From Mytilus edulis (Eukaryota), in contig NC_092347.1 of the NCBI RefSeq assembly GCF_963676685.1, positions 81,282,001-81,346,000 of the forward strand: 64,000 nt of DNA, given 5' to 3'. Positions 1 through 64,000 of the stretch are shown in pieces (position 1 is the stretch's first letter; each line of letters starts with the position of its first letter). A program made the position numbers and the translations under genes. The notes beneath the pieces were generated by a model. The model was not told the origin of the DNA, searched no databases, and worked only from the letters and a program-made list of their open reading frames with translations.

Positions 1-454
1 CCATTTATTCCGTTAGGAACTTATACTGTAATATTTATTCCTGTGGAAATAATATTCCAGAATATTTCTTCCTTTTGGAACTTATATTATGAAGGAACTT
101 CTATTCTGTGACAGTACTAAGATAAACCTACGACTGAGAAAATATATTTGGTCATATTAGCCATATTTGTGCTTGTAGTTACAAGTGTAAATGTACTAAT
201 TATAAAAAAAAGAAGATGTGGTATGATTGCCAATGAGACAACTCTCCACAAGATACCAAAAAATGACACAAAAATTTACAACTATAGGTCACCGTACGGC
301 CTTTAACAATGAGCAAAACCCATACCGCATAGTCAGCTTAAAAGGCCCCGGAATGACAATGTAAAACAATTCAAACGAGAAAACTAACGGACTAATTTAT
401 GCATGTATAAAAATGAACGAAAAACAAATATGTAACACATCAACAAACGACAAC

Positions 455-558
455 CACTGAATTATAGGCTCCTGACTTGGGAAAGGCACATACATACAGA
501 ATGTGGCGGGGTTAAACATTATAGAGGGATCCCAACCCTCCCCATACCCGAGACAGTA
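455..558 (-). ncRNA. Twister ribozyme, P5-type (family A)
   Basis: Minus strand: GGGU AU GGG GAGGG ... UAA CCC CGCC ACAU..AUGU G CCUU UCCCAAGU CAGG A GCCU. Predicted scissile bond U514/A513. One P4 mismatch in this copy. Confidence 0.68.
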
Positions 559-753
559 CAACATAAAAACGAACTATAAAAATCAGTTGAAAAAGGCTTA
601 ACTCATCAGATGGATAAAAATACAAATGGACGTGTACGGGTACTTGCACATCCCAACAACAAAAAGACATTAGATACAGATCTGAGAGTAATCGCAGTTA
701 ACTGACAACTAGTTCAAAGCCTCTAACAACTTATAAAAAACTTATGCATCTAA

Positions 754-821
754 GACTAAATTATCAATCCGTTCACATCCAACATCCAATGGATTTTGTG
801 TAAAGACGTCAAAAAACAGTC
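754..821 (-). promoter_or_regulatory. Type II SECIS-like element (family A)
   Basis: Minus strand: UGAC at 811-808; 12 nt to AAA at 796-794; ministem UCCA/UGGA; 9 of 11 positions paired in helix II; UGAU at 766-763; helix I GACUG/UAGUC. The base before UGA is U rather than the canonical A. Confidence 0.6.
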
Positions 822-1109
822 AGAGAAAAACATGGCATTGTGCAATGCCAATACAGGTATCGACAGATTGTAGATCCATGAATATGTATCTATATTTCTC
901 TAATTCTATGGAAATTATCCCTTTCCGAACCCATTGTACAAAAAAAATTGATCAACATGTGGTTGCCGGTGATCTCAAAAGATCATTGGACGATTTTAAG
1001 GGTCATAACCTTTTTAGCTAACTGGATTGATCACACAATATGCTAACAGGCGTTAATGAAATTGACAACTCAGAAAAAGAAAAAAATATTTTTTAATCAT
1101 TAGAGAAAC

Positions 1110-15799: not shown

Positions 15800-17102
15800 T
15801 TCAGTATACAATCCTGGATATTACGTTAGTTTTTAGTCTTTCTCCGTATAAAAGAACAAAACCATCTATTGAAAAATATAAAAAAAAACTCCTGGTATGG
15901 ATCAATTAATATTTTAAGGGAAAAAATGTCAGGCATAGAAAAGCATATTCCTGAAAAAATATTCAACATTTAAACTACACTGTGGTCAGATTGTTAAGGG
16001 ATACTATACTGCATTGTGGAAAAAACAGCTAGATATACATAAACATGGTAAACTACGAACTTATGTAATATTCAAGTGCAACGTCGGTTTTGAAAATTAT
16101 TTGTCAATAATGACACATTTTGAGCAAAGGAAATGTATAACTAGATTAAGAATATCTGCTCACAAATTGCAAATTGAATCTGGTAGATACCAGGGTACTC
16201 TTCGACAAAACCGAATTTGTCTCAGGTGCACCTCGGGTGAGGTTGAGGATGAAGTTCATTTTTTATTTAAATGTGACACGCATTTATTAAAAAGAGAGGA
16301 ATTGATGCAAAATATATTAAAATCATGTCCAAACTTTCAAAATTTAAATATTAATAACAAATTAGTTTGTATAATGAATAATGAGGATCCCAATGTACTA
16401 TTTGCATTTTATAAATATATAGAAGATATATACTAATAATTGAAGGAAAACATAATCTACAATAATTAATTTCAATATAACTCTTTAATATGAATTTGGA
16501 TACCCTGTTAAGCCTGCACAGATCATAAGAAGAATTTCAAATTCTCTGGTACCGTCCCTTGATGATCCTTGCTGGGTGGACCCAGAATCTATAATCCTAA
16601 ATATATGTTTTTAAAATATTTTTAAAATAATGTAGGAGTTTGACTCATCTGCATTACGTACAAGTAGGGACTTCCCTTTAAGCACCGACTCTTGGTGCTT
16701 TCTGCAGATAAGTCATACTAAATATCCTTTATTAAATAATACTTGTTATTTGCAGTATACCTCATGGTCAAATCTGCGATTGCTTAAATTGTTTTTTTTT
16801 TTATTTTTTTTTATTTTCTCCCCAAAAACTACTAATGCCTCTTGTTGGTCTTTTCAAAGTGAAAATACACTTACCGGGTGCACTTAAGTCACTGAATTAA
16901 ACATAGTATTCATTGATTAATAATACATTGCTACTTTTACTTTATTATTTTGTTAACACTTGTTATATATATATTGTATTGTCTGTGTATTTCATATGAT
17001 ATTGTTTATAATAATATTGTCTGTATGCTATATGCCCTCCTGGGGCCCTTATTTGGTTAATAAAAATATTCTATTCTATTCTATCCTATTATATTCTATA
17101 TT
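15800..17102 (+). mobile_element. 3' end of a non-LTR retrotransposon (LINE; possibly RTE-X-like)
   Basis: ORF 16014-16436 has KLRTY..FK, RLRISAHKLQIESGRY and the CxxC...EDExHFLxxC zinc knuckle typical of LINE ORF2 C-termini. 3' UTR ends in AATAAA plus a (TATTC)n tail. Confidence 0.85.
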
Positions 17103-19268: not shown

Positions 19269-21153
19269 TATAAATGCTTTAGAAGTTTACTTAAATCTCC
19301 TACAAAAATCGCCAAAATCGGCTTTAGAGATCCCGGCCACTCATCTTCTAAGTGGAAAGGGGGTGGAATTAACTCGGTTCATACGACACAAAAACTATAA
19401 TAAACATAAAATTCGGTTCTTTGGCCAGGATGTTATCTTTTTGACAGATTCTGCATTTCCTTTCTCAATTTTATTCAGGACAAGTTTTATCTTAATTCTT
19501 GTTTTACATTTTCTAAAAGTAAACAAAATATAGGTGTTCTGCATCCATTCGAAAACAAATATTTTAATCTTTTATTCTTAAATGGTCTGTGTGGTAGGCC
19601 ATGAAGAAACAAAACAACAAAGAAAGGAAGAAAAATCATCAGTGATCATTATAAAATAAAAAATGCTAAAGGCTTGAGCTAATTCGAAAAATGATTAACA
19701 ATTTTGGATGCATACACGAGATTGTTTGAGCTGGTAATCATTGTTACAATGTTGTCAAATATATGTATACTATTTCAGTAATGGTCACAGTTCAATTTCG
19801 TTATATTAATTTTCTTTGATTGTGAATAAAATGAGATGCGGCATATTGTTTGACATATACTGAGTTGTTAACTTGATTGAAATAAATATGCAACTCTAGT
19901 ACTAAAGGTTATACAACGACGAGAAGACATTTTTTAAATTGATGATTTTGACTTAATGATCAGGAGTCATTGACTGTATCACCCGTCGTGTAAATCTCTA
20001 AATTCACGGATAGATAAGGTTAACAATCCGATAATAAACTTTCAATGGTATTTTTTAACGCCATGTAAAATCAGAAGCAGAAACAAATGCAATTTTGCAA
20101 TGTTGCGTTAATTTTCAAAAAAGATGATGCTGGATATATTACAATGATCTGTAAACATGAGGCAAGGACTAATGGAGGTAGTACAAGCTGGAAAAAAAAC
20201 ACATATAATTAGATCACATCAAATAATCTTGTTGTTCTTCATATTTTTTTCAATCTGGAAATGTCATACTATAGATGTTAAAAAACAATCTATTTTACTT
20301 TTGCATAATATTGAAATTTTCAAGTTCACTTCGAATCAAATTTCTCTGATAAGGGATATCCAGGCGAAACTTATTATAATTATAGTAATACATAAAAATA
20401 GTTGATATTTATTACGAACACGGACAGATTGAAATTTCGCACTTGAGATATATTTTTAATGTTATTTAATAAAGTTTTCAAATGTTATTTTTCGTTTCAA
20501 TCACTTTTAGTTTAACGTGGATTTTATTTTGTTTTGTAAACATTAACATACGTATATATTTATTGCAAGAAATATATCTGAAACGGATGAAATTGCACAC
20601 GCAGCTGCAGTTCTCATTTAACGATAACATTGAAGATAATACATGTAGAAAATTAGTCGGTTAACACTGTAAGCAAGAGAACGATGAAACTACTTAGAAA
20701 ATGGAGAGATTAGAAACCAATTTTATCTGTTTTGATTAAACCTATTCTATGGTATCAGAAAGTACCATTATTTCATCGTTGCTCATGATAAATCAGAAAT
20801 TAATTTAAAAAAAAAAATGAACAAAATAAAAAGAAATAGATACTCGTCATCGTCCTTTTTAATAGTTCGGTAAGTTGGCTCGTCCTGTAGTTATTCCTGC
20901 AGCCAGAATTGCACGTGCTAGGTAGGAACATCTATATTAAAAAAATCGTCCATATGCTAGGAAGGGATATCAGGCTACATTTTGTCAAGCACCAGGAGAA
21001 GAGTAAAGTAGTAAATTGCTGCAAACTTAATTCGGCGTCAAAGTGTATGATTCCAACGTTACGTTGAATTTTACGTTACATGTAGAACACATTTCATGTG
21101 TTACCAAAATTGAAATTTCTCAACTAATTTTTCACCGATCTATATATATATAG

Positions 21154-21441
21154 AAACTAGTCAAAACATTTACTAAATTTTATCATCGGTATAAAGACAT
21201 CATTCGTAAATATAGCTCAACATGCAGACTTCTAATACGTTCAGGTATTTCACATCCAATTTTTTATGGTAATATTCTTTATAAAGCACAAAGGTGTCAG
21301 TATTCACCTCAGAAACTTACAAAACCTTTAAATAGACTTATTAAGAAGGGATATAATTACGATACTGTTGTCAAGTCATTAAAGATTGCATATTTTGGCG
21401 TAAATATTGAGTCACTGATAAGGTCTTTGCATCGGAACTAA
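21154..21441 (+). pseudogene. C-terminal fragment of a retroelement ORF (KLVKTFTKFYHRYKDIIRKY...GISHPIFYGNILYK...LIKKGYNYD...LHRN*), probably PLE RT thumb/C-terminal extension
   Basis: Uninterrupted 95 codons with no start codon, so absent from the ORF track. The KLxKxFxKFYxR and GISxPxFYG motifs resemble the C-termini of invertebrate Penelope-like RT proteins (recognition from memory). No C-terminal GIY-YIG domain follows. Confidence 0.65.
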
Positions 21442-21483
21442 ACACATTTATTCTAAAAAAAAACAGTTGTTGGCATGACACGG

Positions 21484-21574
21484 GTTATGTTCTTCTCATA
21501 TATGTTATGATTGTATGATACTAAACCCCTAACGGGAAGGATTGTGCCTGATGTTCATATGATGAAATCATAAT
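21484..21574 (+). promoter_or_regulatory. Type II SECIS element (family B)
   Basis: AUGA at 21507-21510; 12 nt to AAA at 21523-21525; apical ministem CCC/GGG; helix II GUAUGAU/AUUGUGC plus CU/AG; 3' UGAU at 21549-21552 completes the GA/GA quartet; lower helix present. Starts about 65 nt after the ORF stop. Confidence 0.72.
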
Positions 21575-21757
21575 CTTTCAGTCAGTTTAATTGAAGTCTG
21601 GAGCTGGCATGTCAGTTAACTGCTAGTAGTCTGTTGTTATTTATGTATTATTGTCATTTTGTTTATTTTCTTTGGTTAAATCTTCTGACATCAGACTCGG
21701 ATTTCTCTTGAACTGAATTTTAATGTGCGTATTGTTATGCGTTTACTTTACTACATT

Positions 21758-21848
21758 GGTTAGAGGTATAGGGGGAGGGTTGAGATCTCACAAACATGTT
21801 TAACCCCGCCGCATTTTTGCGCCTGTCCCAAGTCAGGAGCCTCTGGCC
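21758..21848 (+). ncRNA. Twister ribozyme, P5-type permutation (family B)
   Basis: P5 GGUUAGAGGU/GCCUCUGGCC; P2 GGG/CCC; GAGGG at 21775-21779; U21801-A21802-A; CGCC; P3 GCA/UGC; G; P4 CCUG/CAGG with loop UCCCAAGU. Matches the twister core UAA-NNN-YGCC...G-P4-UCCCAAGY-P4...NNN-GAGGG. P1 is non-canonical. Confidence 0.72.
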
Positions 21849-23009
21849 TTTGTTAGTCTTGTATTATTTTAATTTTAGTTTCTTGTGTACAATTTGGAAA
21901 TTAGTATGGCGTTCATTATCACTGGACTAGTATATATTTGTTTAGGGGCCAGCTGAGGTACGCCTCCGGGTGCGGGAATTTCTCGCTACATTGAAGACCT
22001 GTTGGTGACCCTCTGCTGTTGTTTTTTATTTGGTCGGGTTGTTGTCTCTTTGACACATTCCCCATTTCCATTCTCAATTTTATATGTTACTGATTTTTTT
22101 GGATTCTTTTTGTTATTCCGTGATATTGATAAGTATTGCTCTCAACCCGGAACAGATTGCATTTTTTATTTCTACTCGCAAATTTTAAATTAAGTGCAGA
22201 ACTTGCAAAGGTTTTAAAACGAGTAAAACTTCGGAGCGTAATTGTACCAGCATTTCTTTTGCTTTTCCATCTTATAGCACTAAAGAGGCTTCTTTAAAAT
22301 TTACGAACAAAATATGTTTCGGATGATGCTGCCAATTCATTAATGAACGAATATATTACAGTGAAAACTACAAAAAAAACTTGTAAAGAAAAGTTTGAAC
22401 TTCAACAAACTTATTTTCAGCGCAACGAGGTATTTTTGTGTCCGTTATTTTTCGACATAGAGCTAGACGGAGTAGAAAGTTTGCCGGATATTTCATGTAT
22501 TATCACTTTATATTATCGGTTCAGTATAAGTCACGAAATTATTTTTGAATGTTAGTAAACCGACATTTGTTTCAAACGCGGATATGAAATTTTCGTGAAT
22601 GGAACCTTAGGACGCAGCCGGGGGCTTTTTAAAGAATCAAGTAGACATAGATTTTTTTTTCGGGGGAACGAAATAATACAATCTGCGGTAGATCTTTTTA
22701 AATATTGCGGGAAACATTTGAACGACACTAAGTTACTGTATTGTAAGCGCCAAATATTTAGATATGATGAGAGTATAGATCGTGACACAATATCTTTAAA
22801 ATCGTTCCTAATATTAAAAGTCTCTAGTATCAAGTTATTTTCATCTTTGGACGATGCTTAATTGACAATTAGGTACCTGTCATGTTATTCTTGTGAAAAC
22901 TATTTGGTTGGTTCTTACAAAGACTGCATAAATAATTCCATTTGAAGTATAAGGCAACCATACCCACAGTTGTCGGGAAAAACTGAAGCCGCAATTGGGG
23001 TCCCGCAGT

Positions 23010-23325
23010 AGATGTGGTATGATTGCCGATGAGACAATTAGCTCTCCACAAGAGACCAACATAACACAGAAATTAACAACTATATAGGTCAACGTACGGG
23101 CTTCAACAATGAGTAAAGCCCATACCGCATAGTCAGCTATAAAAGGCCCCGCAAAGACAATGTAAAACAAACGGGAAAACTAAGAGCCGTATTTATTTTA
23201 AAATGAATGAAAAACAAATATGTAACACATCAACAAAAGACAACCACTGAATTACGGGCTCCTAACTTGGGACAGGCACATACATAAATAATGTGGCGGG
23301 GTTAAAATGTTAGCGGGATCCCAAC
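23010..23325 (-). mobile_element. Family A copy, truncated within the twister
   Basis: Colinear with 213-536; ends at CCCAAC followed by TA-rich sequence. Confidence 0.85.
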
Positions 23326-28026: not shown

Positions 28027-30544
28027 AAAGTTTTAAATCTGAATAATTGAATTATGATTCATTCAATAAGTAATCTAATTGTTGATTTGAATGAGATCCA
28101 ATTTGTTAAAATTTGGAACAGAGAGTTGATTTTCCTTATGACAGGATTAATATGTAGATTAATTTTGGAATTCTATAACATTGTGTACTTAATGATTAAC
28201 ATAATTTAAAATCCAATTCATAAATGTTTAAAGTTGATATTCGAACCCATCTACCTAAATATTTTAATTACTTAAATTTTTTGGGTGATCTTAAGCTGTT
28301 TGCCAGGAGAATTCCAAGTTCATTAAGCATTTTAATAAATTACTCTTCAAAGAAAAAATAATACTATTTATTTGCAATTAACAACTTTCTATTTTTATCA
28401 AGTGTTATGTTTGTTGACGCCATCCTCTAAATGAATAGAACTTTAAAAGGATTGTTGACAAACTTGTCTGGACATGCATGAGTTAACGGGTAGTATACTA
28501 CTGTACCGTAATCGTCCAACCGAGACCATCAATATTGAAATGATTAACACATTAACTAGGCTATTACATATTGTAGGATATTTCTGGCAGTAGTTCAACT
28601 TTTTATCCAATTTGACATATTGATCAGTGCACAGTTTTGAAATTTCAGCTGATTTTGAAGAGTATGGAGGATTTATACCTGTAATTTACACCTGGACAGG
28701 TAAAAATTCAGGTAAGTAATAAATTGGTCAATTCATTTGTTTTATTGATTTCTGCAGATAAAAGTTTACCATTAAATACATAACTTCCAACAAAGTTGTG
28801 TCAATACACATTTTACTAGGATATTGTACAACATGTTAAGGTACGCTTTATTTTCATTAATTCAGTTTTGCATCATCATTTGAACTTTAAAATGTGTAAA
28901 AAGAAAAGATTAAATTTGTGCTTTTAAAGTTTCACTTATTAAAAGAGATGGTTTTTGAAGGGTTTTTCTTACAGGAAAAGAGGGGGGGGGATTTGTGAAG
29001 CCTGTAGAATTGACACAAACAAATTAAATGGAAAGCAACTGGAGGGAGTTTAATATAACTATATTAAAATTATGAAGCATTTTTACGTACTAAGAGGATT
29101 ATTTTACATGTACATGTTTTTAAAAATTGAGTGGGGATGGTCAAAAGAATGTTTATCCATTTAAATTGAATTTAAGTTCTTTTGAAATAAGTGCAGCAAT
29201 TAAGTACCGGGTAAATTAAAGAAGAAAAATAAATCACATTTTTTTGGAGGCATTATGCATGAGATTTCTTCTGCATAATCATCAATCAAAATATTAAGAG
29301 ATGATTATGTGTTAATAGTCTGAGAAAAGAAATTCTTACATAGTTTAAAAGTTCTTATTGAGATTCAAGAATGAATTAAAAACATTCTCTTGCATGTCAA
29401 CAAACTGAAGAAGACAGAACATATCATCATGCTGTATCAATTAACGTCCTGTAGTGATCAATATAGAACAACTTGTTTATAATGTTGTCTTGGGACAAAA
29501 TAAAATAAGTATTTTTTCTATTAAAAATCAACCAAAATATATATTAAAAAAAAGATAAGATTTACACATTACATGGCATACATGACATACAGAATGATCT
29601 GTTAGAGTTTTTTGGAAATCAATACAGATGTTTAGAGGACAGTGATATTGTTGGCTTTTTTCAAAACTACCTCTACCCTTTTTTATTGGGAAAATATGTG
29701 TCATTTTTATCAAATTGGGAAATTTATAATGAGATGAATTAGACTGGAATTTCAATTTGCAGACCCCCTTTCAAGAGGTAAACCTTCATTTGAAATAAGA
29801 CCCCTTATTGTCAGTGATGATATATAAATAGACCCTCTAATCTGAACATATAGTCATCTCAGGCAGGAAAATGGTTTAAATGATTGTTTTTAAGTGTGTA
29901 TTCATGCATAATTACTACTGACATGACTGAGACTGCACTGTTTTGGAAAAAGTTGTCTTTTTGGGAATAATTTTAAGCCCTTTTTATTCAAATTGGGATT
30001 ATTCTCCAGGGGAAAAAGCCTGTATTCTCCATTAATTTAAGGCAAACAATATCACTGGAGGATATACAGATATAAGATGTTAAAATGTATATGAAGACAG
30101 ACAAATGAATTCCCTTGTTTTTGCTACTTGTGGTATACAAACATTAGAAGAGTCCGTACATCAGTTATTTTCATAACTGTTAAATTAAATTTATGAAAGA
30201 TTGGCATTAAGACATAAAATTTTGTTGACTTTATTGTTTAACATTTTGTATGTTTATAGATTTATGGATTAGATTCACAAAAATAGACATTATTCTTTTC
30301 TAATATGAAAATATTTGTTTATTGTTATATTTCAAAAGAATTTAATATTTGGATAAAATATTTAACAAACGTCTTTGTTTGTTTCATGTATATCAGATTT
30401 AAGCTTTTGACACAACTTACTTGTGGCATATACTACAAACATACTTTCATATGTGTACAAAGATATAAACTTGTGGGGCATATAAAAGACAGTGTGCTTC
30501 ATTGGCAGAGTGACCATTTTCACTGAAATAGTACACATTTTTAT

Positions 30545-30686
30545 GTAGGGGCTAGCCAAGATCCACCTCTGGGTGCAGGAGTTTCTCACTGCATTGAAGA
30601 CCAATTCGTGGCCTTCGGCTGTTATCTGCTCTTTGGTTGGATGTTTGTCTCTTTGACATATTCCTCATTTCCATTCTCAATGTTAT
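30545..30686 (+). mobile_element. Family B 3'-end fragment
   Basis: Colinear with 21943-22083. Confidence 0.8.
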
Positions 30687-32266
30687 GCTACTCGTAAATT
30701 TTGTTGATAATCATAGAAAATACATATATATTTTACTTGCCCAGTAGATAGGTAATTTATTTTATGATTTAGGTAGTTCTAAAATAGTAGCTAAATATGT
30801 TTTGGTATAGGTCAAATGGAACAAAGCCCTTGGTCAGCTAGAACAGCAAAGTAACAAGAAATTTCAGGGAAAAAACCAATAACACTTGTATTAGTTGTCT
30901 GAATCATTTTGTTTTCTTAATATAGTTTTTCTCAGTTTTAGAAATACCAAGAAAAGATCTTAAGGATTTGAATACAAGTAGTATAATGAATATATTATAG
31001 AATATCCTTTCATGGTAGTATATGATGGGTGGATTAAAATATTTTACTTCAAAGATTATCTCTTTTTCACAATTATAACAATTTTCAACCTATAGCTATG
31101 ATTAACATAGTTTTATAGATGAAAAGATGTTATTTGTAATCATAGTGTTATTATATATGTAGCATTATTTTAGCATACAATAAATAGGGAGTATAAGCAC
31201 ACATGTTTTTATCACACAATAAATTGGGAGTAAGCACACATCATTCTTGCCTATGTAGAAAAAATGAGCAAAAAATGTTTATTTTACATAACACTATTGT
31301 ACTTTCATCATGTGAGTTCTGTTTCCAGATACTGTTTTTTGTTCATATATTTTTTTTGTAGCAGTTAAAATGATGATGTCTTTATAAAGTGGTTTAATAA
31401 TAAAATACTTTCGATAAAATGAATGGTATAAAGGTCATTTGTCCATAGTGATATGACAATATATAGTGGAATTCCAGTTGTCAAATAATATATGCAGACC
31501 ACCTATAATTGATACAGAAATTTAATGGTATTTTGTTGTACATATATAGAACTACACTATACCTATGATTACTTAGTGAATGAAATCTAACATACATTCC
31601 CTTGTCTGTGTACTTTGTTAAGACATGCTTTTCCATGGATGGGGTTATTAAGTGCACAAAATGTTCACTCAATGTAAGCTGACTTTTACAGCACATATTA
31701 AAATTGATGAATGATGTGAAGATGGTACAGAGAAGAAATGTGATTCTGAACCTTTCAAAAACCCTCAGAATGAGTGATTTATTTGGAAAATCATTGATAT
31801 TTTTACAGTGCTAAAATAAATGTAAATGAATAGTAGGTCTTTCGATTAGTTTGGAAGGAGTTTTGGAAAAAAATATATGATCACAAGATTATAATATATA
31901 TAATGCGAACAAAGTGAAAACAACATGTAATAAATTTCATGCGTTCAAAGCACTTTTCTGGAATGTTCAAAGCAGAATAATTGAAAGCCAAGGATGTATT
32001 AGTACCAAATAAGAAAACATGCTAAAAGGACAATGCTTCATGTTTAAAAAATTGTCTAAAAACAGACCGCCAGCAAACTTATCAGATTTAATGCCTTGAG
32101 TCTATTTAACTTTTAACAGATATAAGTATATTGATATTTATTTTACATTTAATAATACCAGACAATACAATTATATTTATGTACTTTAATGGACTATGTT
32201 CAAATATTGTTTATTTTTCAGGTCAGCTAAAGTGTAGTTTTTTATTGTGATAATGGATAAATAACC

Positions 32267-32555
32267 ATGGAAACAGAATTTCTTCCATCAAATATGGAGT
32301 TTGTGGAAGGAGAACTAGAAGAAATAGATGCAAGTCCCGAGTTTGAAGGAGATGAAACCATTAGTCTTTCAGACATTCTGTCATCTAGAGATTTTTGCTT
32401 GTCTGAGGAAGAGTTATGGGCCTTGTGTCGTGAATGTTGCCTTGTACTGGATGTTGTAAAGAGTTCACCAGAAATGTTCCAAACATTGTGCATTACACCA
32501 GACACCGTAGCTTTTGATGGTTCTGGAAACGTCTGCTTTTTAGACTTGGAAACAG
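32267..32555 (+). CDS. KNDC1: KNDC1/very-KIND orthologue, first coding exon (N-terminal part of KIND domain 1)
   Basis: Acceptor tttttcag ends at 32221; ATG in accATGG context; donor ACAG|GTATGG (phase 1). The peptide ISLSDILSSRDFCLSEEELWALCRECC...LCITPDTVAFDGSGNVCF closely resembles vertebrate KNDC1 KIND1 as I recall it (VSLADILSLRDRGLSEQEAWAVCLEC...LCITPDTLAFNTSGNVCF). Confidence 0.92.
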
Positions 32556-35500
32556 GTATGGTACAAAATCGACAACTGTCGTATCTATGTTTGTAGTGGT
32601 TATAACATATTGTAGAGAGATTAGTTTGTTGCAAAATTTTTGCCGAAATTAATAACGAACATTTTTCATGTTGCATGATATTCATTAACCAAATAATATT
32701 GTCAGATTTTTCTTCAATTCTATATTAAAAATTTTTGTTGTGATTTATATATTACCAGTAAATATACTAAGTACATCTACTGACAAGGTTTTTTTTGGTT
32801 GAAATTTAAAAAAAAAAACCAGCCAAGAGGAGGGACAAAAGAGTGCTAAAAAGTCAGGAGATTTTGACTCCTGTCTCAAGAATCACATGTATTTTACTTT
32901 CCAATGGAAAATGCTTCAACAGTGTATCAGCATAGACATTAGAACACAGTTGTCAGACCACCAATTGGTATAAAATTAAAAAGATCTGCCATAAATGTTG
33001 TGTCTGAAAACATGATATTAAAACCATTGATAAAAAAGCTTAAATAGGATGTCATGTTTTATCTGCTATCATTATAAGTCATCAACAGCCATTTATAAAG
33101 TTGAGCTGGGCGACTCTAAAGGAATATATGGTTTTAAATTTCTTTTTGGGTCTAATTTCAGACTGTATCTTTTTGACAGGTTTTTAACAGATATTGTAAA
33201 TGTTTTTACCGCCATTCTGTTTTGATTAAGTAAAACATGCTCATCAAGTTTGCATGTTAAAATATAATTTTAAAATTTGTATTTATGAAATAAATGAAAA
33301 GCTAATTCAAAGGTGACAAATTTTTTTCAATATTCAATGTGCACCTATTCAAAGTTAAATTATATTTAAGGAGTTTCAAATTATTGTCACCTATCCCTTT
33401 TGCTGTGTGGGCTAATAACATTAGAATTGCATGCATCCAACCTAAAGAATTTGTTGAATATTAAACGTATGTTCCTGTTTCTTTTATTATGGTTAAGGTT
33501 AATCATGTTTTCAATTCATATATAAAAGTTGGAATGATAGGTATATTTTGTACACATGTGGTGTCAATGTATTGTTAGAAAATTTGAAAAGCTTTCGTTT
33601 ATATCTTAAAAGTAAGTTTCCAAAATAGTTCTTAAAGTACACAAAGATTTTGTAAAATTTATTACATCAGCACCTTTTGATGAAGTTATCTTAACATTTT
33701 TGAAAAGGAAAGGAACTGGAATGGTCACCATTAAGGAATTCATGTTAAAAGGGCAAGAAGAACCAAAACAGTCATTTATGTAAAAACCAATATTAACGTA
33801 AATTTCAGTTTCATTTAAATTTTTCGCTTTTTCCCATTGAAAAATACTAATCATTTCAAATATAAGCTGCATGAAGTATTTGAGTGAAAGTGAATTGATC
33901 CTCCGTAGAATAGGTCTCTATTGTCCCAGACATCATTAGTAAGTAGACGTACTTGTGTCCCTATTGTCAGCGAAAAGCCGATTAAATGTCTACAAGATAA
34001 TGTGTTTACAGAGTATGAAAATCTGATGGATCTTATAAATGATAATAAAATTTTAAATTTCAAATCAATGGTGTTCAATTAAAATGGTGATTTTAATACA
34101 ATTAAGGCTCTTGTTTTGTAATAGTAAGCTACTCAATGTCATTAGGTCATATTACCTCTAGAGTAGTTGGGTCATATTACTGATAAGCTTTAAAGAAAAT
34201 TTTGTATAAACTGTTGATGGCTACATCAAATTGGGGGGTTTAATAATATATATATTTTTCAAGGAACAGCATAATATTCAAGAAAGAAGAAGTTGGAAAA
34301 GTCCAGCAAACTGAACTTCTTTGAAGTGTAAAAATTTACTCTTGTTTGGATCTTAGATTTTTTTTATTAAAGCTTATAATAAAGAAAAAAAAGATACTGA
34401 TATTCTGATCGTGTTTTCTTCATAACTATTTTGAATGATATCTTGATGTCATAATACAGATTTAAAATTTTGTCTGCCGTCTTTAAGTTTTGCAACATAC
34501 CTATTTAAAGTATTATAAAGTCATTATATAAAACAGCCATTATCATTATCCACTTGTCAATAATTTGGGAAGAATTTTTTCCTTGATAATGCTGATGCAT
34601 AGTATAGAGAAAGATTGACAATCAGAAATCTTGTCGTTATATTCAAGGAAACCTTGGATGCATGGAAAGTTGTCTCATTGGCACTCATACCACATCTTCT
34701 TATTTATATTTATCACTAAAGGTTCTTGCCATGATCTCTTTGTTCTTAAAAATTTGCCAATTTAGAATGATGTATAGTTCTATTTCATCATTTGCTATCA
34801 AGGGGCAATTTGACACTGTTTTTTTTAGAAAGTTCAACAAAGTTTAGAATAAATTAGTATTGACTCCTAGGTTATCAATTCACATGTACTGAATATTTTG
34901 GTATCCATTCAGCAATGTTTGTTTGATCCTACTGTTGATTCTGATAGGTAAAAGTTTGAATGTTTTGTGTTTAAATAGCCTGACTTTTATAACATAAGTT
35001 ATTGTGTAAGTAAATATCATTAAAAGTTTTTATGTACAGTGTCAAGTTCAGATTTTGTAATAAATTGTCATGCCAAAGGGATAATTGACCACTAAAAAGG
35101 AAATTACAAGAAGTTATTCAAAACTTTAGCTGATTACAAGGAAGACATAACTAAATGGTATAAAGAAAAGAATTAATCATTTGTAAAAAAAAATCTTCCC
35201 TCCCCCTAAATACAGATATTATTTTGGTACATGTATGTTGTACTCTAATATCATTATACCATACTGTTTAAAAGAAATACTATTAGTAGAAAGAATAATG
35301 CCAAATATAAATAAAAGGAGTTGTGGTAGTTTTCAATAAGACAGCAAGTCAACAACACAATTCAATCAATTAAAACATCAAGAGGTCACCAAAAGATTTT
35401 CAGCAATAGATACTTGTAATTCATTTGTACTATTAGATGTCTTTTAAAAGCTCTTGATTGTCCAAATAGTGAATTATCGACTTCAAAAGTACTGTCATTT

Positions 35501-40508: not shown

Positions 40509-40700
40509 ATAAAATTGAGAATGGAAATGGGGAATTTGTCAAAGAGACAACAACCCGACCATAGAAAAACATACAACAGCAGAATTAAGGTCACCAACAG
40601 GTCTTCAATGCAGCGAAAAATTCCCGCACCCAGAGGCGTCCTTCAGCTGGCCCCTATACAATATATATACTAGTTCAGTGATAACAATTTAATGTCATGT
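40509..40700 (-). mobile_element. Family B 3'-end fragment
   Basis: Reverse complement of about 21905-22083. Confidence 0.85.
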
Positions 40701-51419: not shown

Positions 51420-53797
51420 GTAAGGAAATTATGCAGGGGCCTAGCTAGGTATTCAGTCAACTGTAGGCACCAATCGGCAGGGGGTCTGGGGGCCACTCAT
51501 GGCCCCCAGCAGGTCCAGGGCCTCTGCCAGGGGTTCAGGTGGGCGAAGCCCCCCGACAAAACAGTTTTCAGCGTTTTAGCTGCAAAATTTAATGTGCAAA
51601 AATATCAAATTTACTAGTTATTTAATCATGATAATTATAATATACAAGATGAAAAGTTCGAAGAATTATGAATTATGTACCATAACATCAGCCTGGGGAA
51701 TTAAATAACGCAGTACAATTTGAAATATAAAAAAAAAAATTTACAATATGCATTGCCCAGCGTACATCAGCCTATGGATTACCCCTTTAATTAAGCAGTA
51801 CACCCTGTTTGGTATTATCACATCTAATTCCGTTCTGATTGATATATACGTTTAACTTAATTAATAGTACATATTGACGATTCTTCATTAAAAAAATAGG
51901 CACGTAAACACTGATATCACTATACGGTATATATAATAAAACTATCCTTTTGGCTAAACATCAACCATCAATCTTTTGAATCTTAAACCTTCACCCTAGC
52001 CACACAAACACATACACACAAAGTTGATGCCTAACAGAATTCAAGAAATTCATATTTCTTTATACCCTCTACTGTAAAATCCCTACCTGCTAAGGAATTT
52101 GAATAATTGTGGGCTGGCCATTACACGCAGATCTGAGAGTACTCAAAATTACCGGAAGCCAGTTAATTGGTTGATTTTTAAATATCCAGTGTCAAATATC
52201 TATGCAAGTTCATGACAAAAAAACAAATTTACAATAAATACAACTTGGAGCTAGGACCTGTAATAGGTGTTGTCCAGGACGAAGGTCTGGAAATAAAAAA
52301 ATGCCATGCATTGGAAAATGAGGGATTATTGGATAGGAGCCGAAATTTTGCCTTTCAGTAGACCAACTACGAACTCCTCAAAGAGTTGCATTCTCTCTAC
52401 AACCATCGGATTTAATGTCCCCATTCTGACCAGACGTGATTGTGTACCTAAAGTACCTAACGGCAGCTATGCCGCTGTTATGCGAGACCTGATTGTAGAA
52501 TATAATAAATTCTCTCCAATGAGAGATGGAATAATTATACATTTATTCCCTTTTCCAAATGATTTATGTATAAAAACTTATATATTCATACGAATGGTGT
52601 TTGAATCAGAATAAGTTTCATTTGAAGTTTAATTCTTAAATACTTAAGTGAATGTTGAAAAAGAAGCCTCAACATGAATTCAGAAACTAAACAATTAAAG
52701 CACAAATATTTTTTTAAATAACAGATAAAAGGTATGGGCACACCCTTTTTTAAACCAGATAGTAAAACCCTTTTCAATTCTATTGTTTTCAGATAATTGT
52801 CATTTAGCCATGAATTCAATATTTTTGAAACAATCAGCATAAAAATCAGTCCACATAACACATGACTTATCGGAAATGTTTTCAATGAAATCAAAAGCAA
52901 TTTAGTCTTTTCTTTATGTATTTTTTACTAATAGATCAATAGTGTGTTTAATATATTGTTTTACAAGTGAATAAAGAATAAAAGTTTTATAATATTTTTT
53001 TATTGTTGGAAGTCACATGCATCTCAGAAGTATTGACTTGACAAGATAACATTATATAATTGTAATCGTTCTATTTTGAGAATGCTTTCATGATTAAAGT
53101 GAATAGAAAATTGGATTGGAGTATTTTTAAAGACTGAAGGTGTATTAAACCAATCTAATGATGCTAGATCCATATTCTTGAACCTACAGTTTTGTATCTT
53201 TTTTTAGAAGAACAACCAACCAAGGGATTACTGATTTCATATTTTTCAAAAGTTCTTTAAATATGATTATTTAAGATATCATTTATGAAAACAAATGCTT
53301 TTTTTTTTAATAAAACTTGTCAACCAAACAAAAGCCTGTAAATCAGTATTATATTTCACAATTGAAATAAATTTCGTGTACCATGGAGGAATAGTTTTTG
53401 TAAAAATTTCATTTCAGCTTTATTTTGTTTTAATTACAGACAATTTTCAATTTGTTTTGCTTCATTTTAAAGTTTGAATGAAGACATTATTGCTTTGCTG
53501 TCTTTACTTTTTCAAAGTAAGTAATTAAAGTATTTTTCAACAATAGGTTAGTATGTCCAATTATTTTCCCTGTTGAAATTTTTATTTCAGACTTTCTACA
53601 GTCAGTATTATAAGGTATATATAAGAAATATGTCATTTTTTTTGTGTTTTGAATTTTTGAAAAGAAAAGCCTTCCATAGAGTTGGGATTCTGAAATATTG
53701 TTTGAATTCCATTGGTTGCTGGATTATGTTGATTACTTGTAGTTGATGAATTTGAAAAACAATTATAAAAATTTAAGCATAAATTTTCCATTTTCAG

Positions 53798-54562
53798 TCT
53801 CACCTGTTTTCTCTTGGGATGACACTACTGTATGCAGCAGAATATAATGGGGAACCAGGTCGTCCAGAAATCACTGCAGAACTAAGACAATTATTTGGTT
53901 ACATGACATCAGAGAAACCAAGTGACCGACCTGATTTAGAATCTCTTATAAATCAATGTGAAGAGGAACTTGTTGGAAAATCATCAGCAGATATTTGTTG
54001 TAAGATTGGTTCATTTACGGCACATTTTTCTCCAGCACCTGATGGACATTCGTCAAGTTTAGCAGATGTAACTGCAGGTTTAGCAAACTATTTACAAAGC
54101 CAGTCAAAATTGTTACCCGATTCATCAGCGTTAAACATAACTGATCCACAGCAGCATTCTACACCTGCAGTGTCACCTGACATAGTGTCGTCTGCTAATG
54201 CAGAAGAAGACATGGCACTTCGTGGAAATTACACAGGGATACCAACGGCAACTGGAAACTTAAAACAGTCATCTCCTCATAACAGGAAAAATAAAAATAG
54301 AACTTTAAGTGGTGAAAATGAGAATGACAATATTGGATTTAAACCACCAATTCCAAGAAAGCCAGACCTTAAAAAACAGTTGGATAATGATTCAGGAGTG
54401 ATTGATATGGATTTATCAAATAATAATGATAATAATAATGAAAATATGTCCAAATTTAAACCTGTGCCTCAAAAACGGAAACATTCTGATTCTGTTCAAA
54501 CTAACAAAGAAAAGTCAGATTCTAATAAATCAGAAAAGACTAATAGGTCAAAGAAACGTCAG
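53798..54562 (+). CDS. KNDC1: KNDC1 coding exon 3 (end of KIND1 plus low-complexity linker)
   Basis: ttttcag| acceptor, 765 nt, CAG|GTAAGA donor. SHLFSLGMTLLYAAEY...MTSEKPSDRPDLESLINQCEEEL resembles the kinase C-lobe-like end of KIND. Confidence 0.92.
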
Positions 54563-56135
54563 GTAAGAGATTATGCTTATATTTAATGCTTTTATTGAAA
54601 TATTTTATGTGCTGGTATTTGGTAGTTTTTTCCCCCTCCCAAAAAAAGACACAAATTAAGGGGAAAAAGCACAAGTTCAGAAGAAAAATGTTTTTATTTA
54701 AATTTGAGCCCTAGTTTTCTACTTCCTTGCTGAAACAAATTTCATGAACTGTAACTGCTCTTGTAATTAAGATCTTGAATATAGATTTAGTATATTTAAT
54801 TTAATACATATATGTAGCTACTATTGCCAAATTGTAGAATGATGTCTGAAATTTTTTACTTAGCATGTTTATATATGAACATAATTTGAGTAAACATGAT
54901 AAAGATTCCAGGACTATGTATTTATTGAATAATTCCAGGACTATGTATTTATTGAATAATTCAAGGAGTTAATAAAACAAATAATACTGTTACTGAAAAT
55001 TGGCAATGGTCAGTTGTCTGATAATTTTTATTGCAAGTGGTCAGTTGTTTGATACAGTTCTGCCAGGTCTCTTTTTATGGAAGCAAATGAGATATTATAA
55101 TACTTAAAAAATTTACAAATCTTAAAAAAAAGTTAGGTCCAGCTATATCAATTTTGGAGCTTCCATTTTTACAGCCCAAATTCTATCACAAGTTGTATAA
55201 TAATGAATTCTGTGTATTTATGGAGTTTTGTGGAGATCAATTTTGTGGATTGGTAACAATTGTATTTGTGCGGACAATATATTTTCTGTAAAATGGGATA
55301 AACTGTTATGCTTAGGGGAAAGATTATTTTGCTTAGTAATTAGCTTGTTAAAAATGAAATTTAAGCAGGCACAATGTGTAGACATTTTAATTCATCAGTT
55401 TGTATGTCAATGTACTATACTACTTGGATTAATAGTTCTGTATACAGGTGAATAGCCTATACAGTGCTAAATCTGAGGGTTTAGATTTAATTTTAAAACA
55501 CCACTTTAAAGACACTTAAAGAAAGAAGTACCTCAGAAAAAATTCAAAATAACAACCTCTAAAGTACAAAACAAACTTATAATTTAAAAACAGACCATAA
55601 AACAACAAAAGCAAAATATTCTGCAGATGTCAAATTGAAAATTCACATATAATATTGCAATATCTAAATAACCCAAAGTTCTATTTTTATTTGGTCTTGT
55701 GGTAGTTTGGTAGCCTTGAGTACAGATGGTAATTGGTTTGATCCTCACATTGGGCAAACATAAGACTTCAAAATTAATTGTTCACAATATGAGAATGTGA
55801 AAGTTTGAACAAAGACTGGCCTACTTTGAGCCAAAATAATATGTTTGAGAACCTGCTGTTTGTGTCCTGTCATTTATATAAAAACAGGGTATACTCATAA
55901 TTCATTAAAATGTTGTTGACTTGAATAGGCATGTGATAATTGCCACTGGACATCACATAGCAATGAATCAATCAATCTTAGCACAGCTTAGTCATGACTC
56001 TACTAACTCTTTCAAACAAGAACTTTCATCCAATCTTTTTAGATCTTGCAGAAAATGTGTTTCTTTGAGTTATGAGTAATCTGCAACTTGAAATTTGAGG
56101 TCTTGGATTTAAATATATGTACAATTTAATTTTAG

Positions 56136-57244: not shown

Positions 57245-57898
57245 GTATTAAAATGAATTAATTATGTTGTTGGGAGTATTTACTTCCCAAAATCAAACCC
57301 ATTTTCACTTTTTTGGTTGAGTATGCAAAATTTATGTTATGAAACTGAGACCTTGTTTAAATCAGTGGATGTTATCAACATTTTAGTTTAGTCTGTGGTC
57401 AAAAGTTTTTTTTAGAAGTCAATGATTGTCAGACCTTCACGGAATTTTACAAAATTTGGACAAGCTTTATTGTGACCAAAAGACAGTATCAGGGTGAAAA
57501 TTCTTAAAACACTTGACTGACGATTGGACTCATACTTAACATTTAACACTTCACTCCTACGCTGACATCAGCAATTGCAAGCAAGACACAGGGGTATACA
57601 GAATCTTATCACCTGAAAAAAACTTAACATGTATTATAACACTAATTATAACAAAATTTCAAAGGGACTTGTGTTAAAAGGAAAATTTATATATTGACAG
57701 TAGAATATGACACTTTTGAAATGGGTGAGGGGATTTTTAGGTAAATTTATTTCAAGGCAAATTCATCCATGAAAATGTTTCATATTATCTCAAAGGTTTC
57801 TCTTCTTATCTTCTTTAATAAATTACTAGACATATGCATTTTTCAGAGGATTGCCATGAGTTATATATTTACATATTCTGATATTATCTATGTTTCAG

Positions 57899-58057
57899 GC
57901 TTGTTTATATGGACTTGGAACAACCTTGAGGTGTACAGGAGGTGCTAAACATTCATCCGTTAGCTCCCTTGGTATTTCATCAGAATTAAAGGAGTTACTA
58001 TCTCAGTTAGTTCATCCAGACATGACACAGAGGCCGAGTATAGAGGATACTTTAGAG
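57899..58057 (+). CDS. KNDC1: KNDC1 coding exon 6 (KIND2; ACLYGLGTTL...QRPSIEDTLE)
   Basis: tttcag| acceptor, 159 nt, GAG|GTATTG donor. Confidence 0.88.
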
Positions 58058-58408
58058 GTATTGATAATTTCATTCAGGGCACTACAATTAGAGGTTCAGT
58101 TTCTGTTAATGTGCTGAAATATGTCAAATGCATTTTGCCAATAGCTGAGATTTAGAATTTATACTATTCCATGTAAAACAGGTGATTTATATCATGGATT
58201 GAATCACCTTTTTGTTTTTTTAATTTTGACCCCAGATAATTCTGAATTATTATATTCAATCTTGTTTAATTTCACACCAAAAATTTACTAGAAATTCCAC
58301 ATTTTATATTCCCTATAAAGCAAATTATTTTAAACAAGTTAAAAGATATTGCTTTATTAATACCTTCAAATTTATTTTATCAAATAGACTACAGAAGTAT
58401 ATAGTATT

Positions 58409-60035: not shown

Positions 60036-60514
60036 GTATGGTTTCCTTTGAAATTAGATACAATATCTAGCTGAAAATACATGTTTCTTAAGTTGATTTA
60101 AAACAGAGTTGGAAACATTAATAATATTTAAAAAACATTCTACATCCTGTATCAAAAAGTAAAACCTCTGAATGTATATAATGACAAAAATTGTCTGTGT
60201 AACATTTATTACAAAGGAGAAGTAACATGAATTGGCTTTGGGATTTTTGAGATGTCACAAAAGTGAAGTTACTTCATATGTTAAATTAATGACAAAATTG
60301 ATTTATTTAAGCATATTGATAATTATATATGTCAACAAGAAAAACTCATGTAAACAGTATCTTATTTCAAACCATGCTCTTTTGCTAGTTATCTCTTTGA
60401 TGGTGTTTAACTCAGTTTGATGAAGCAGACATTTGATGTAACTTTGCTGTGAAAGTATAATTATTACACTAACATACATTTCGTCTTACTTCTTACTTGT
60501 CTGTATACTTACAG

Positions 60515-62244
60515 ATTGAACAAGAAGAAAATTCTAACAAACATGATGAGACACAGGAAATTGACATGGGTTCAGCTTTCCGACCAATCAAAACTACTGT
60601 GGAGTCAGCTTTTGTTCCAAAGAAACCTGTCCCAGTTAAACCTGATGAACCTTCTAAGACCATACCAACGGCTTACAGATCAACAGCAACACATTTTAAA
60701 CCTATTGTTTTACATAGAACTGAAACTCCAGTAGACAAGAAAGAAGTCAGAAAGGAAAAAAGTCCTTCCAATGATTGTCAACCAAGTGAAAAGGACAAAG
60801 AGGTTGTGAAAAAATTAAAAGAATTGAAGAAGAATTTGATGAAACATAGACAACCGTCTGGTGGGAAAGAAGATGAAGCTGAGCCTGGGACACCACCTCG
60901 GTCACCAAAACCGAAATCTAAACAGTATCATAGTCCGAAAAAATCATCAACACAGAAATCGTCAAATGATGATAGTCATGAGGATAAATCAAATAAGAAA
61001 GACGGGATGGGAGCTTTAGAAAATTTATTGTCAGAAGTTCAGAAACGAGGCACACAAGTTGATACCGATACTTTGGCTTCTGCTATTGCTCAGCATTTAC
61101 AGAATTTTATGGGTAAATCCGAACAAAAACCTTCACAAATAGATACTGCAGACTGGGTTCAGAATCAGAATAATCAGTTTATGGCGCCACAAATGCCACC
61201 ACCACAGATGTGGCCAAATTTAAATATTCCCTCCCAATATCAACAACATGTTGTAGGACAAACTGTGACATTACCACAGTATGGAGGTGGAATGGTACCA
61301 GGTGGTTACCCAATGCAGGTGCAGTTACAACAGGATCCAAGAACAGGGTTTGTGCAGTTGGTACCTGTTGGAATGCCTGTGCCATTTCAACAACCAACAG
61401 TAAATGATTATGGATATTTATCAGATTCTGCAAAAAGTCAGAAAATGCATGGAAACTTTACTGTGTTAAATCAGTCTCCTCTAAATACTAGTGGTGATAT
61501 GGATAGTTCACCAAATGCTAGTAGGTCGGGGAGACCTGGCAGAGCAGCTAAAAATCTTTTACAAAAAACTGCTAACATGAGAGCTAAGAATACAGGAAGA
61601 GTGCATAGTGCTCGACATGTTGATCATTCAGCAGAAACTAGCAATCTATGGAGATCTAAATCTGCACATATGATAAATGATGAACATTTTCATTCAGATG
61701 GTGAAGCCATAAAAAGACATTCTAGTCATCTGTCAGCATTTGAGATCAAACCTGGATCTTATGATGATACTGTTCTTCACAGGGGCAATCATCAAAACAT
61801 TCAGTTTGACTCATTACAACGTTCTAGCAATCAACACATACCTCATAAACATTCAGGGGCAGATAATCAGGTGTCTATGCAGCCACCGATTTCTGAATCC
61901 CAGTCTTCGTCTCCATCTGCCTCTAAAGACAGTGGTATTAGTAGTGTAAATGGTGCTTATAAACCTCCTGCCGCAGGAAGTATGGTTGAACGATTATTGA
62001 ATAACGTCCATAGTTCTCAACAGGAGAAATTAGGACGTGTTATTCACTTGTTAAGGGAGGAGTTTGCATTTGATGGTTATATGGAAAATGGTGTGGAGGA
62101 TTTAGCCACTGCTGAATATATAGCTTCTTTAGGAAACCTTAAGTGGGAAACCTTTGCTAGTGCAATAACTGAGAAATACTGTGACATTTATTGGGCGCCA
62201 GATTTGTTGATGAGTCTGTATGATTCAGTCAATGCATCTAACAG
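60515..62244 (+). CDS. KNDC1: KNDC1 coding exon 8 (1730 nt, mostly disordered linker with two conserved blocks)
   Basis: ttacag| acceptor and AG|GTGAGG donor (phase 2). Contains ATHFKPIVL and REEFAFDGYMENG...AITEKYCDIYW, both of which I recall from vertebrate KNDC1. Confidence 0.92.
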
Positions 62245-62261
62245 GTGAGGTTGGTTGTAAG

Positions 62262-63083: not shown

Positions 63084-63205
63084 ATTTATGTTTTCCAATG
63101 AAATGCACTAGATTTAAACATTAAGGAAGTACATTTTGTACCAAGTAGTTGGTTGAAAAGGAAATATAGAAATAGAAATATATCATGAACTTTTCTCTTC
63201 AATAG

Positions 63206-63893
63206 ATCACCTCAGGTTCAGCCTACTGTCTTAGAACCGTCTGTACAGGTTCAAAACCAAAGAGATCTTCCTAGTCAAAGACCATTGTCACTTCATCAAC
63301 GATTACATCAGCCTGAAACATCAGATTCCACAGACAATGAAAATTACGAAAGGAGGCGTAGACCTCGTCGTAAACATCACCACGACAAATCGAAAAATTC
63401 ATCATTTAATAATGTGTCGGAACAAAATGTGCCAAATAATATTGACAGGCTTAGTGATGATACCTTAGTGTCGGATAATTCTAATGATAAACTTAGGGAA
63501 AGGGAGGTAACTCCAAACAGGGATGTGAGTAAGAATAATATCCCAATGGAAAATAATCCCTTACAAACATTAGGAAATAATTCGGATAGTCAACGGAGTT
63601 ATCGTTCACATGAGTCAACAGAGGAAAGCAACAAATCAGATAGTCAGACGGAAAAATCAGAACATGGAATTTATCGTAAAAATAAGAAAACTAATCAAAA
63701 TCGTGTGTTTTCTGCTGATAGTGGAATGTTAAGTAAGGGAAGTAATTTGACTCGTCATCTTTCTCAATTATCGTTAGTGGATAATGTACGAACGGAGATC
63801 CCACTTCATACAAGGAAATGTAATGTTGTATACCATTATGCCACTATGCAGTTAAATTTTTCACCAGATATGGAAAAATTCGTTCAGAGTATA
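63206..63893 (+). CDS. KNDC1: KNDC1 coding exon 9 (gene continues beyond the window; RasGEF domains expected downstream)
   Basis: ttttctcttcaatag| acceptor matches phase 2; open frame to the ATA|GTAAGT donor. Confidence 0.88.
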
Positions 63894-64000
63894 GTAAGTG
63901 TTTTATTTATGATCTATTTTATTCCCATTGTAAATGAAGCAGTAGTTGTTAAAGGATCACTATGTTTTATCTACTAAAGAGTGTAGGCATCCTCCTAAAC

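Follow-up and report, generated by a model that had tools for sequence, protein, structure and literature searches.

Full-length copies of a Naiad retrotransposon in Mytilus edulis very probably recode four in-frame UGA codons as selenocysteine (Sec) through a SECIS element in their 3′UTR. The 64 kb stretch of DNA analyzed here (the window) contains a truncated copy of this element, hereafter family B, that retains the SECIS hairpin. Recoding of the element's own protein, which the earlier note had proposed from this hairpin, is supported at the level of sequence by TGA codons at cysteine columns, purifying selection in the segments around them, covariation within the SECIS, and tRNA-Sec genes in the host.

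A SECIS hairpin in a truncated Naiad copy

The copy in the window belongs to subfamily B1; its 930 bp align with the 3′ end of the full-length copy L036 at 99.0% identity. The microsatellite at its 5′ junction is the likely target site (table), and (TA)n is described as a frequent Naiad target in PMC8557442. The copy is a 5′-truncated passenger without any codon to recode; as had been noted from the letters alone, the remnant of the reading frame (21154-21441, 95 codons) has no in-frame TGA. The hairpin had been placed just downstream of a stop codon in a transposon 3′UTR, and its AUGA indeed begins 65 nt past the TAA (21439-21441) of the Naiad frame. AUGA, a 12 nt spacer, AAA, the ministem, helix II, and GA were all seen at 21497-21561, in agreement with the type II assignment. 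The extent originally given, 21484-21574, contains the SECIS, but the element proper is narrower (about 21497-21561).

Features of the window and of loci L271 and L272 (window coordinates unless a locus is named)
Feature	Position	Strand	Basis
5′-truncated Naiad (Penelope-like) copy, 930 bp, subfamily B1	21154-22083	+	identity to L036
(TA)6 microsatellite at 5′ junction, likely target site	21141-21152	.	sequence
Last 95 codons and TAA of endonuclease-RT frame, no TGA	21154-21441	+	sequence
3′UTR / pseudo-LTR part of element	21442-22083	+	comparison with full-length copies
SECIS element, type II shape	21497-21561	+	sequence, Rfam alignment, fold, covariation in relatives
Helix I	21499-21504 / 21556-21561	+	sequence
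AUGA (ATGA), 5′ side of non-Watson-Crick core	21507-21510	+	sequence
Spacer from AUGA to AAA, exactly 12 nt	21511-21522	+	sequence
Unpaired AAA	21523-21525	+	alignment of relatives, fold
Apical ministem CCC/GGG, 3 bp, with 5-nt loop CUAAC	21526-21528 / 21534-21536	+	fold
UGAU (TGAT), 3′ side of core, GA at 21550-21551	21549-21552	+	sequence
Family C 3′UTR fragment, SECIS-like part 749-824	199-902	-	model R1
Short matches to the element's extreme 3′ end	40509-40684 (-), 30515-30686 (+), 19417-19474 (+), 23257-23325 (-)		76-90% identity
LINE-type reverse-transcriptase remnants (presumed from motifs)	15939-16436 (+); L271 3891-8789 (-)		window piece: no Pfam match
KIND-domain host gene exons	32261-32596, 53783-54586, 57860-58117, 60473-62248, 63189-63977	+	PF16474, E 1.7e-4 for first
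Tandem array of at least 13 copies of a 346-bp unit, 15-20 kb upstream of window	L272 160-4600		

The Rfam model SECIS_1 (RF00031) shares with this hairpin the AUGA/GA core, the 12-nt spacing, the AAA, the two helices, the ministem, and the 3′UTR position, and it aligned full-length to 21497-21561 with 23.2 bits (E 0.097). The Rfam cut-off of 35 bits is a score threshold and no functional criterion; neither the window copy nor the common B1 form of the family (32.3 bits) reaches it, and at cut-off no family matched in the entire window. Unlike the Rfam members, this SECIS belongs to a mobile element and exists in thousands of copies. The window copy carries a private G>T at 21512, which leaves a U-C at the first helix II pair. 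With our model R1, it scored 63.8 bits, its sequence having been in the training set. The 65-nt core folds into the type II shape with ordinary stability (z -0.57), and a longer, 97-nt stretch has a different minimum free energy structure (z -0.59); energy-based folding of the window SECIS is uninformative. When the 200-nt 3′ region was shuffled 2000 times, our own SECIS descriptor matched 19 of the shuffled sequences; on the + strand of the window it matched four times, compared with three times in the shuffled window. Because shuffled sequence is matched about as often, the hairpin motif by itself is only suggestive, and a single copy is no proof. The SECIS in the window is real, as decided by the evidence from the family.

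About 10 kb downstream of the window copy lies the first recognised exon of a KIND-domain host gene, which we take to be likely very-KIND/KNDC1-like. On the + strand upstream of the copy, the ORF lists of the window and of the 20 kb before it contained no recognised host exon. Donation of the SECIS to a host mRNA by this copy was rejected, given the lack of an upstream host exon and the distance of about 10 kb to the nearest recognised gene, which is downstream. The short matches to the 3′ end of the element likely represent heavily truncated copies of related families.

TGA codons at cysteine columns and a covarying SECIS

The genome searched spans 1.37 Gb in 14 large contigs. The window copy found 978 candidates there, and the 40 that were scored were all 98-100% identical; a 25-base SECIS core had 5,248 exact matches, compared with 0 for a reversed control. 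The element body is about 3.94 kb. Many copies are truncated, and the 3′UTR/pseudo-LTR part is present in all truncated copies extending to it. The natural copy L036 has a 1002-codon frame from ATG, unbroken apart from four TGAs. A GIY-YIG endonuclease joined to a reverse transcriptase (RT) is recognised by the motifs IYLLT..QYVGET, close to the N terminus, and YLDD, within the RT. Homologs of the element protein carry PF01541 and PF00078; a Pfam scan of the element protein P0001 itself detected neither, no meaningful Pfam match was obtained for the element's proteins, and a PDB sequence search gave no match. An AlphaFold model (pLDDT 86) has telomerase RTs as its best fold matches, as would be expected of a Penelope-like RT.

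According to PMC8557442, Naiads are recognised by a GIY-YIG domain at the N terminus, CX2-5CxxC and CCHH fingers, a KR-rich block, CxC, DKA, and a C-terminal RT. In our family, both fingers stand out as conserved columns, C50-U55-C58 (CX4CxxC, upstream of GIY-YIG) and U97-C102-H121-H138 (CCHH), and the KR-rich block, CxC, and DKA are all present, with C385, C387, D512, and K513 conserved. The body size lies within the 3.4-4.4 kb of Naiads, and 5′ truncation and partial tandems with pseudo-LTRs were likewise found, the tandem copies being 4031-4033 bp apart. Naiads lack a canonical hammerhead ribozyme, and none was among the Rfam matches at E<=5 in six loci, including full-length copies. Family B consists of two subfamilies that diverge by about 7.5%: B1, the window type, with copies about 1% apart, and B2, with 0-15 differences in 3.1 kb and tandems of 4.03 kb. 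Apart from the TGAs, the frame is open in 14/20 B1 loci and 19/23 B2 copies, although these copies were picked for long frames and give no genome-wide rates.

The earlier note had suggested looking for TGA codons in the full-length ORF, and natural full-length copies proved to have four conserved ones, each at a cysteine column. Codon 55 is the second Cys of the CX4CxxC finger, codon 86 the Cys before GIY-YIG, codon 97 the first Cys of the CCHH finger, and codon 522 the Cys eight residues past DKA. Among 121 aligned proteins (120 homologs and the query, with TGA read as C), the residues in these columns were Cys in 82/82, 81/83, 87/88, and 112/121 rows, respectively, and W in the others. Each of the four sites is TGA in all 23 B2 copies, and the picked B1 copies have TGA in 21/21, 21/21, 21/21, and 20/20. 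The corresponding counts in the top 30 loci of the endonuclease-region search were 30/30, 29/30, 27/30, and 30/30, the TGC at codon 97 being favored by a query with C; the sets counted overlap in part. Among the best 150 of 3,907 candidates of the same search, a count by eye gave exactly three TGAs in 139, fewer in 10, and four in one. Codon 97 is TGC in three of the top 30 B1 loci, and 10 of 150 matches have fewer than three TGAs; such loci (L053, L069, L079, and others) are possibly a sub-lineage that reverted from Sec to Cys.

The B2 copies (L084-L099) have an additional in-frame ATG 45 codons ahead of the main start, with a TGA five codons after it; this may be a small ORF upstream of the main one, or else a fifth site of read-through. 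A 1047-codon reading of B2 from this ATG was dropped, as B1 and family A do not have it.

Between B1 and B2, dS was 0.29 and dN 0.03 (L106 versus L088; two further B1 copies gave similar values). The dN/dS ratios were 0.09, 0.0, 0.11, and 0.11 in codons 1-54, 56-96, 98-521, and 523-1002, respectively. Selection has acted on the entire frame and not just on the part after the last TGA, and therefore UGA read-through is required.

A second family of the same genome, family A, was found by searching with the database protein P0025 and is 63% identical to B; searches with P0003, P0005, and P0045 led to family B again. Family A has the four TGAs of B and a fifth at the first Cys of CxC, and six of its loci (L126, L127, L128, L129, L131, and L133) have unbroken frames of 1002-1004 codons with all five. 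The four TGAs are retained, although A and B differ at about 76% of synonymous sites and the Cys codons common to both switch between TGT and TGC. A SECIS-shaped hairpin lies about 140 nt past the stop of family A and is unlike that of B in sequence; an Rfam search at E<=5 did not detect it. The older family C is about 75-79% identical to A, and 24 of its 25 loci had a match to model R1. The family C hairpin in the window has UUGA instead of AUGA and scored 23.4 bits with this model; the best-scoring sister copies listed have AUGA and reach up to 40.8 bits.

Relatives outside this genome comprised 80 metagenome and 6 genome-collection loci, of which 59 reached the RT end and 46 had a tail of at least 450 nt. 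None of the 115 pattern matches in viral contigs was a relative. Six loci (L240-L245) are Naiads in records titled bacterial genomes, one of them (L240) with four TGAs; their likely source is animal DNA within metagenome assemblies. A quick maximum-likelihood tree was built from 61 rows, excluding six near-duplicate loci and all loci with <330 aligned residues; all 15 TGA rows fell into one clade of 24 rows (SH-aLRT 99). The other nine rows of this clade are partial or database proteins, and none of the 37 rows outside it has a TGA. Within the clade, sites alternate between TGA and Cys. Sec is not indispensable at each site, because several families have Cys at site 522 and 3/30 B1 loci have TGC at codon 97.

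In the 46 outside loci with a tail of at least 450 nt, several of which are near-copies and not independent, the descriptor matched 12/15 TGA-bearing loci, 0/15 Cys-only loci with a visible endonuclease, and 2/16 partial loci. One of the three TGA loci without a match (L202) has an Rfam match of 33.1 bits, and two relatives exceed the Rfam cut-off (L240, 42.1 bits; L173, 38.8 bits). Among 51 loci searched with model R1, no Cys-only locus had a match at E<0.05, the nearest (E 0.052) being outside the 3′UTR, and five matches were found in four other loci (L242, L225, L212, and L169). In these sequences, the combination of TGA and SECIS is confined to one wide clade.

In an alignment of 13 SECIS elements, the U, G, and A of AUGA, the GA of the 3′ side, and one C-G pair of the ministem were present in all 13. 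All 10 pairs of helix II vary on both sides, and 93.8% of cells are paired. Covariation over the whole structure was 0.92, compared with 0.26 in shuffled controls (0/500) and 0.17-0.31 in slid ones, but this value is inflated, since most of the 13 were selected with a descriptor requiring pairing, and the loci include several near-copies. The B2 SECIS scored 30.9 bits with Rfam, under the 35-bit cut-off; in 23/23 copies the first pair of helix II is an A-C mismatch, and the minimum free energy fold of its 65-nt core is not SECIS-shaped. This first pair is open in 4/13 SECIS, including the young B2, and therefore the U-C of the window copy need not abolish function.

Probable Sec insertion and alternative readings of the UGA codons

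In the established Sec pathway, SBP2 binds the AUGA/GA core of the SECIS, and eEFSec delivers Sec-tRNA at the UGA. Host machinery reading the four UGAs as Sec would yield one endonuclease-reverse-transcriptase of 1002 residues, with SBP2 presumably bound to the family's SECIS core and eEFSec supplying Sec-tRNA at every UGA. Failure at any of them would end translation before the RT core. Three of the UGAs are in the zinc fingers of the endonuclease, and one is just past the DKA motif. Grouped by conservation, the Cys/His and Sec sites form three sets of four, C50-U55-C58-U86, U97-C102-H121-H138, and C385-C387-H399-U522; because each set contains a Sec site, the four Sec residues are probably metal ligands, and the third set is put forward here, from its conservation, as a proposed metal site. 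Protein output, and likely transposition too, would then depend on Sec supply, as the earlier note had supposed, and transposition would be under selenium control only if this supply were limiting in the germ line.

The part of the host Sec machinery seen here is the tRNA-Sec genes. Five loci exceeded the cut-off of the tRNA-Sec model, with the anticodon TCA in 3/3 checked; four of the five are clustered on contig C7 within 0.6 Mb. A tRNA-like gene with sub-cut-off matches to the same model occurs in long tandem arrays with 895-bp spacing (C10:14401393-14442259; C945). RNA covered 30/30 bins of a full-length copy in 4/4 runs (three of raw reads and one of contigs). Because the reads come from both strands and are most abundant at the 3′ end, many of them are attributed to passenger copies in other transcripts. 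One run had a single-strand excess over the 5′ half of the element, and the three raw runs contained 8, 2, and 1 reads with a tandem 3′-to-5′ junction. The RNA reads show transcription of the family sequence, not translation.

The UGAs might instead be read through with the help of the SECIS mostly as Cys or another residue, in which case transposition would not be limited by selenium. In mammals, the Sec pathway is known to insert Cys when selenium is low; nearly all homologs have Cys in these columns, and TGC or TGT at single sites in some families and copies of the clade suggests that Cys likely works. However, the four TGAs have outlasted the near-saturated synonymous distance between A and B, over which Cys codons switch, and therefore TGA and not Cys is what has been selected, which makes this reading quite improbable. 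The weak scores of the single copy in Rfam and folding, and a descriptor loose enough to match about equally often in the real window and in 64 kb of shuffled sequence, would suit TGAs that are true stops in a dead or non-autonomous family moved in trans, with the hairpin a chance look-alike or relic. Such a family would not be expected to show a dN/dS of about 0.1 downstream of every TGA, nor copies that retain all four TGAs and differ by just 0-15 bases in 3.1 kb; the TGAs are at Cys columns only, the hairpin is missing from 15/15 Cys-only relatives, and no close all-Cys helper was among the matches listed (top candidates). We regard true stops as extremely unlikely.

Decoding of UGA as Trp by RNA editing or a variant code is hardly credible either. 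It would account for the W at TGA columns in a few database homologs (2, 1, and 9 rows), but P0002 and P0040, rows with W, cluster with loci that have TGA in their DNA at these positions, and the W likely reflects gene calling or mutated copies. The frame already uses TGG seven times, Trp is no substitute for a metal-ligand Cys, and the SECIS would be left unexplained; no RNA difference was at a TGA among the 40 differences listed (490 more exist). Sec insertion thus remains the preferred reading of the four codons.

Relation to published seleno-Naiads and implications

A Sec signal in Naiads is already published (Craig et al. 2021, PMC8557442), with four seleno-Naiad families described computationally from two clams and two spiders; the families reported here are additional members, young, and in the case of B abundant and recently active. 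Comparison with the published families was by eye, over protein sequences cut to about 400 residues. The clam elements Naiad_Mmer (Mercenaria mercenaria) and Naiad_Scon (Sinonovacula constricta), whose hosts differ from the Mytilus host of B, share with B the N-terminal GIY-YIG, the C-terminal RT, and a SECIS in the 3′UTR (PMC8557442). Their endonuclease regions are alike by eye, and three Sec sites are common to both: the Cys preceding GIY-YIG, the Cys that opens CCHH, and the site eight residues past DKA. The printed start of the Naiad_Mmer SECIS resembles the SECIS of L173, L202, and L240. By eye, the clam sequences, which are outside our tree, would seem to belong to the TGA clade. In family B, the second Cys position of the CX4CxxC finger, which is Cys in both clams, is an additional Sec site, and family A has a further Sec at CxC. 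The SECIS is also farther from the stop, 65 nt to AUGA in B compared with 1-21 nt in the clams, and is type II by fold here, whereas the clam SECIS are type I by SECISearch3, a comparison between different methods (PMC8557442).

The spider elements Naiad_Sdum and Naiad_Smim, for which the same source gives a separate origin, also combine multiple UGAs at conserved Cys with a 3′UTR SECIS, and in Naiad_Sdum, as in B, Sec takes the place of the second Cys in the CX2-5CxxC finger. Unlike B, they have no Sec at the first CCHH Cys and a reduced insertion-in-fingers domain (IFD), and their sequences are distant by eye (PMC8557442). Naiad_Mcor and Naiad_Mgal from Mytilus, probably the same host group, have the Naiad architecture of B (PMC8557442, File S1), but are given without selenoprotein annotation and with Cys at the endonuclease sites (Tyr at one of them in the Mcor consensus); their finger has a 5-residue insert, and by eye they are clearly another family. 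Four motifs of families A and B had no match in the supplement of PMC8557442 in a text search in which line breaks could hide one. In literature listings, with subscription journals, Dfam, and Repbase outside their scope, only PMC8557442 was relevant to mussel seleno-Naiads.

The present families add young members with many unbroken copies in another host. Beyond the passages of PMC8557442 at hand, they add selection across the UGAs, covariation of the SECIS, and the limitation of TGA and SECIS to one clade. Annotation pipelines would label such seleno-Naiads dead. Donation of SECIS elements to host genes was raised there as an open question (PMC8557442), and the 5,248 exact copies of the SECIS core make it a testable one. 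That a highly active retrotransposon is gated by selenium through four Sec ligands, and that its more than 5,000 dispersed and partly transcribed SECIS copies are donated to host mRNAs or compete for SBP2, is a speculative and rather unlikely scenario. If true, SECIS copies in host mRNAs would give rise to new selenoproteins or UGA read-through, and the element would be a mobile source of recoding.
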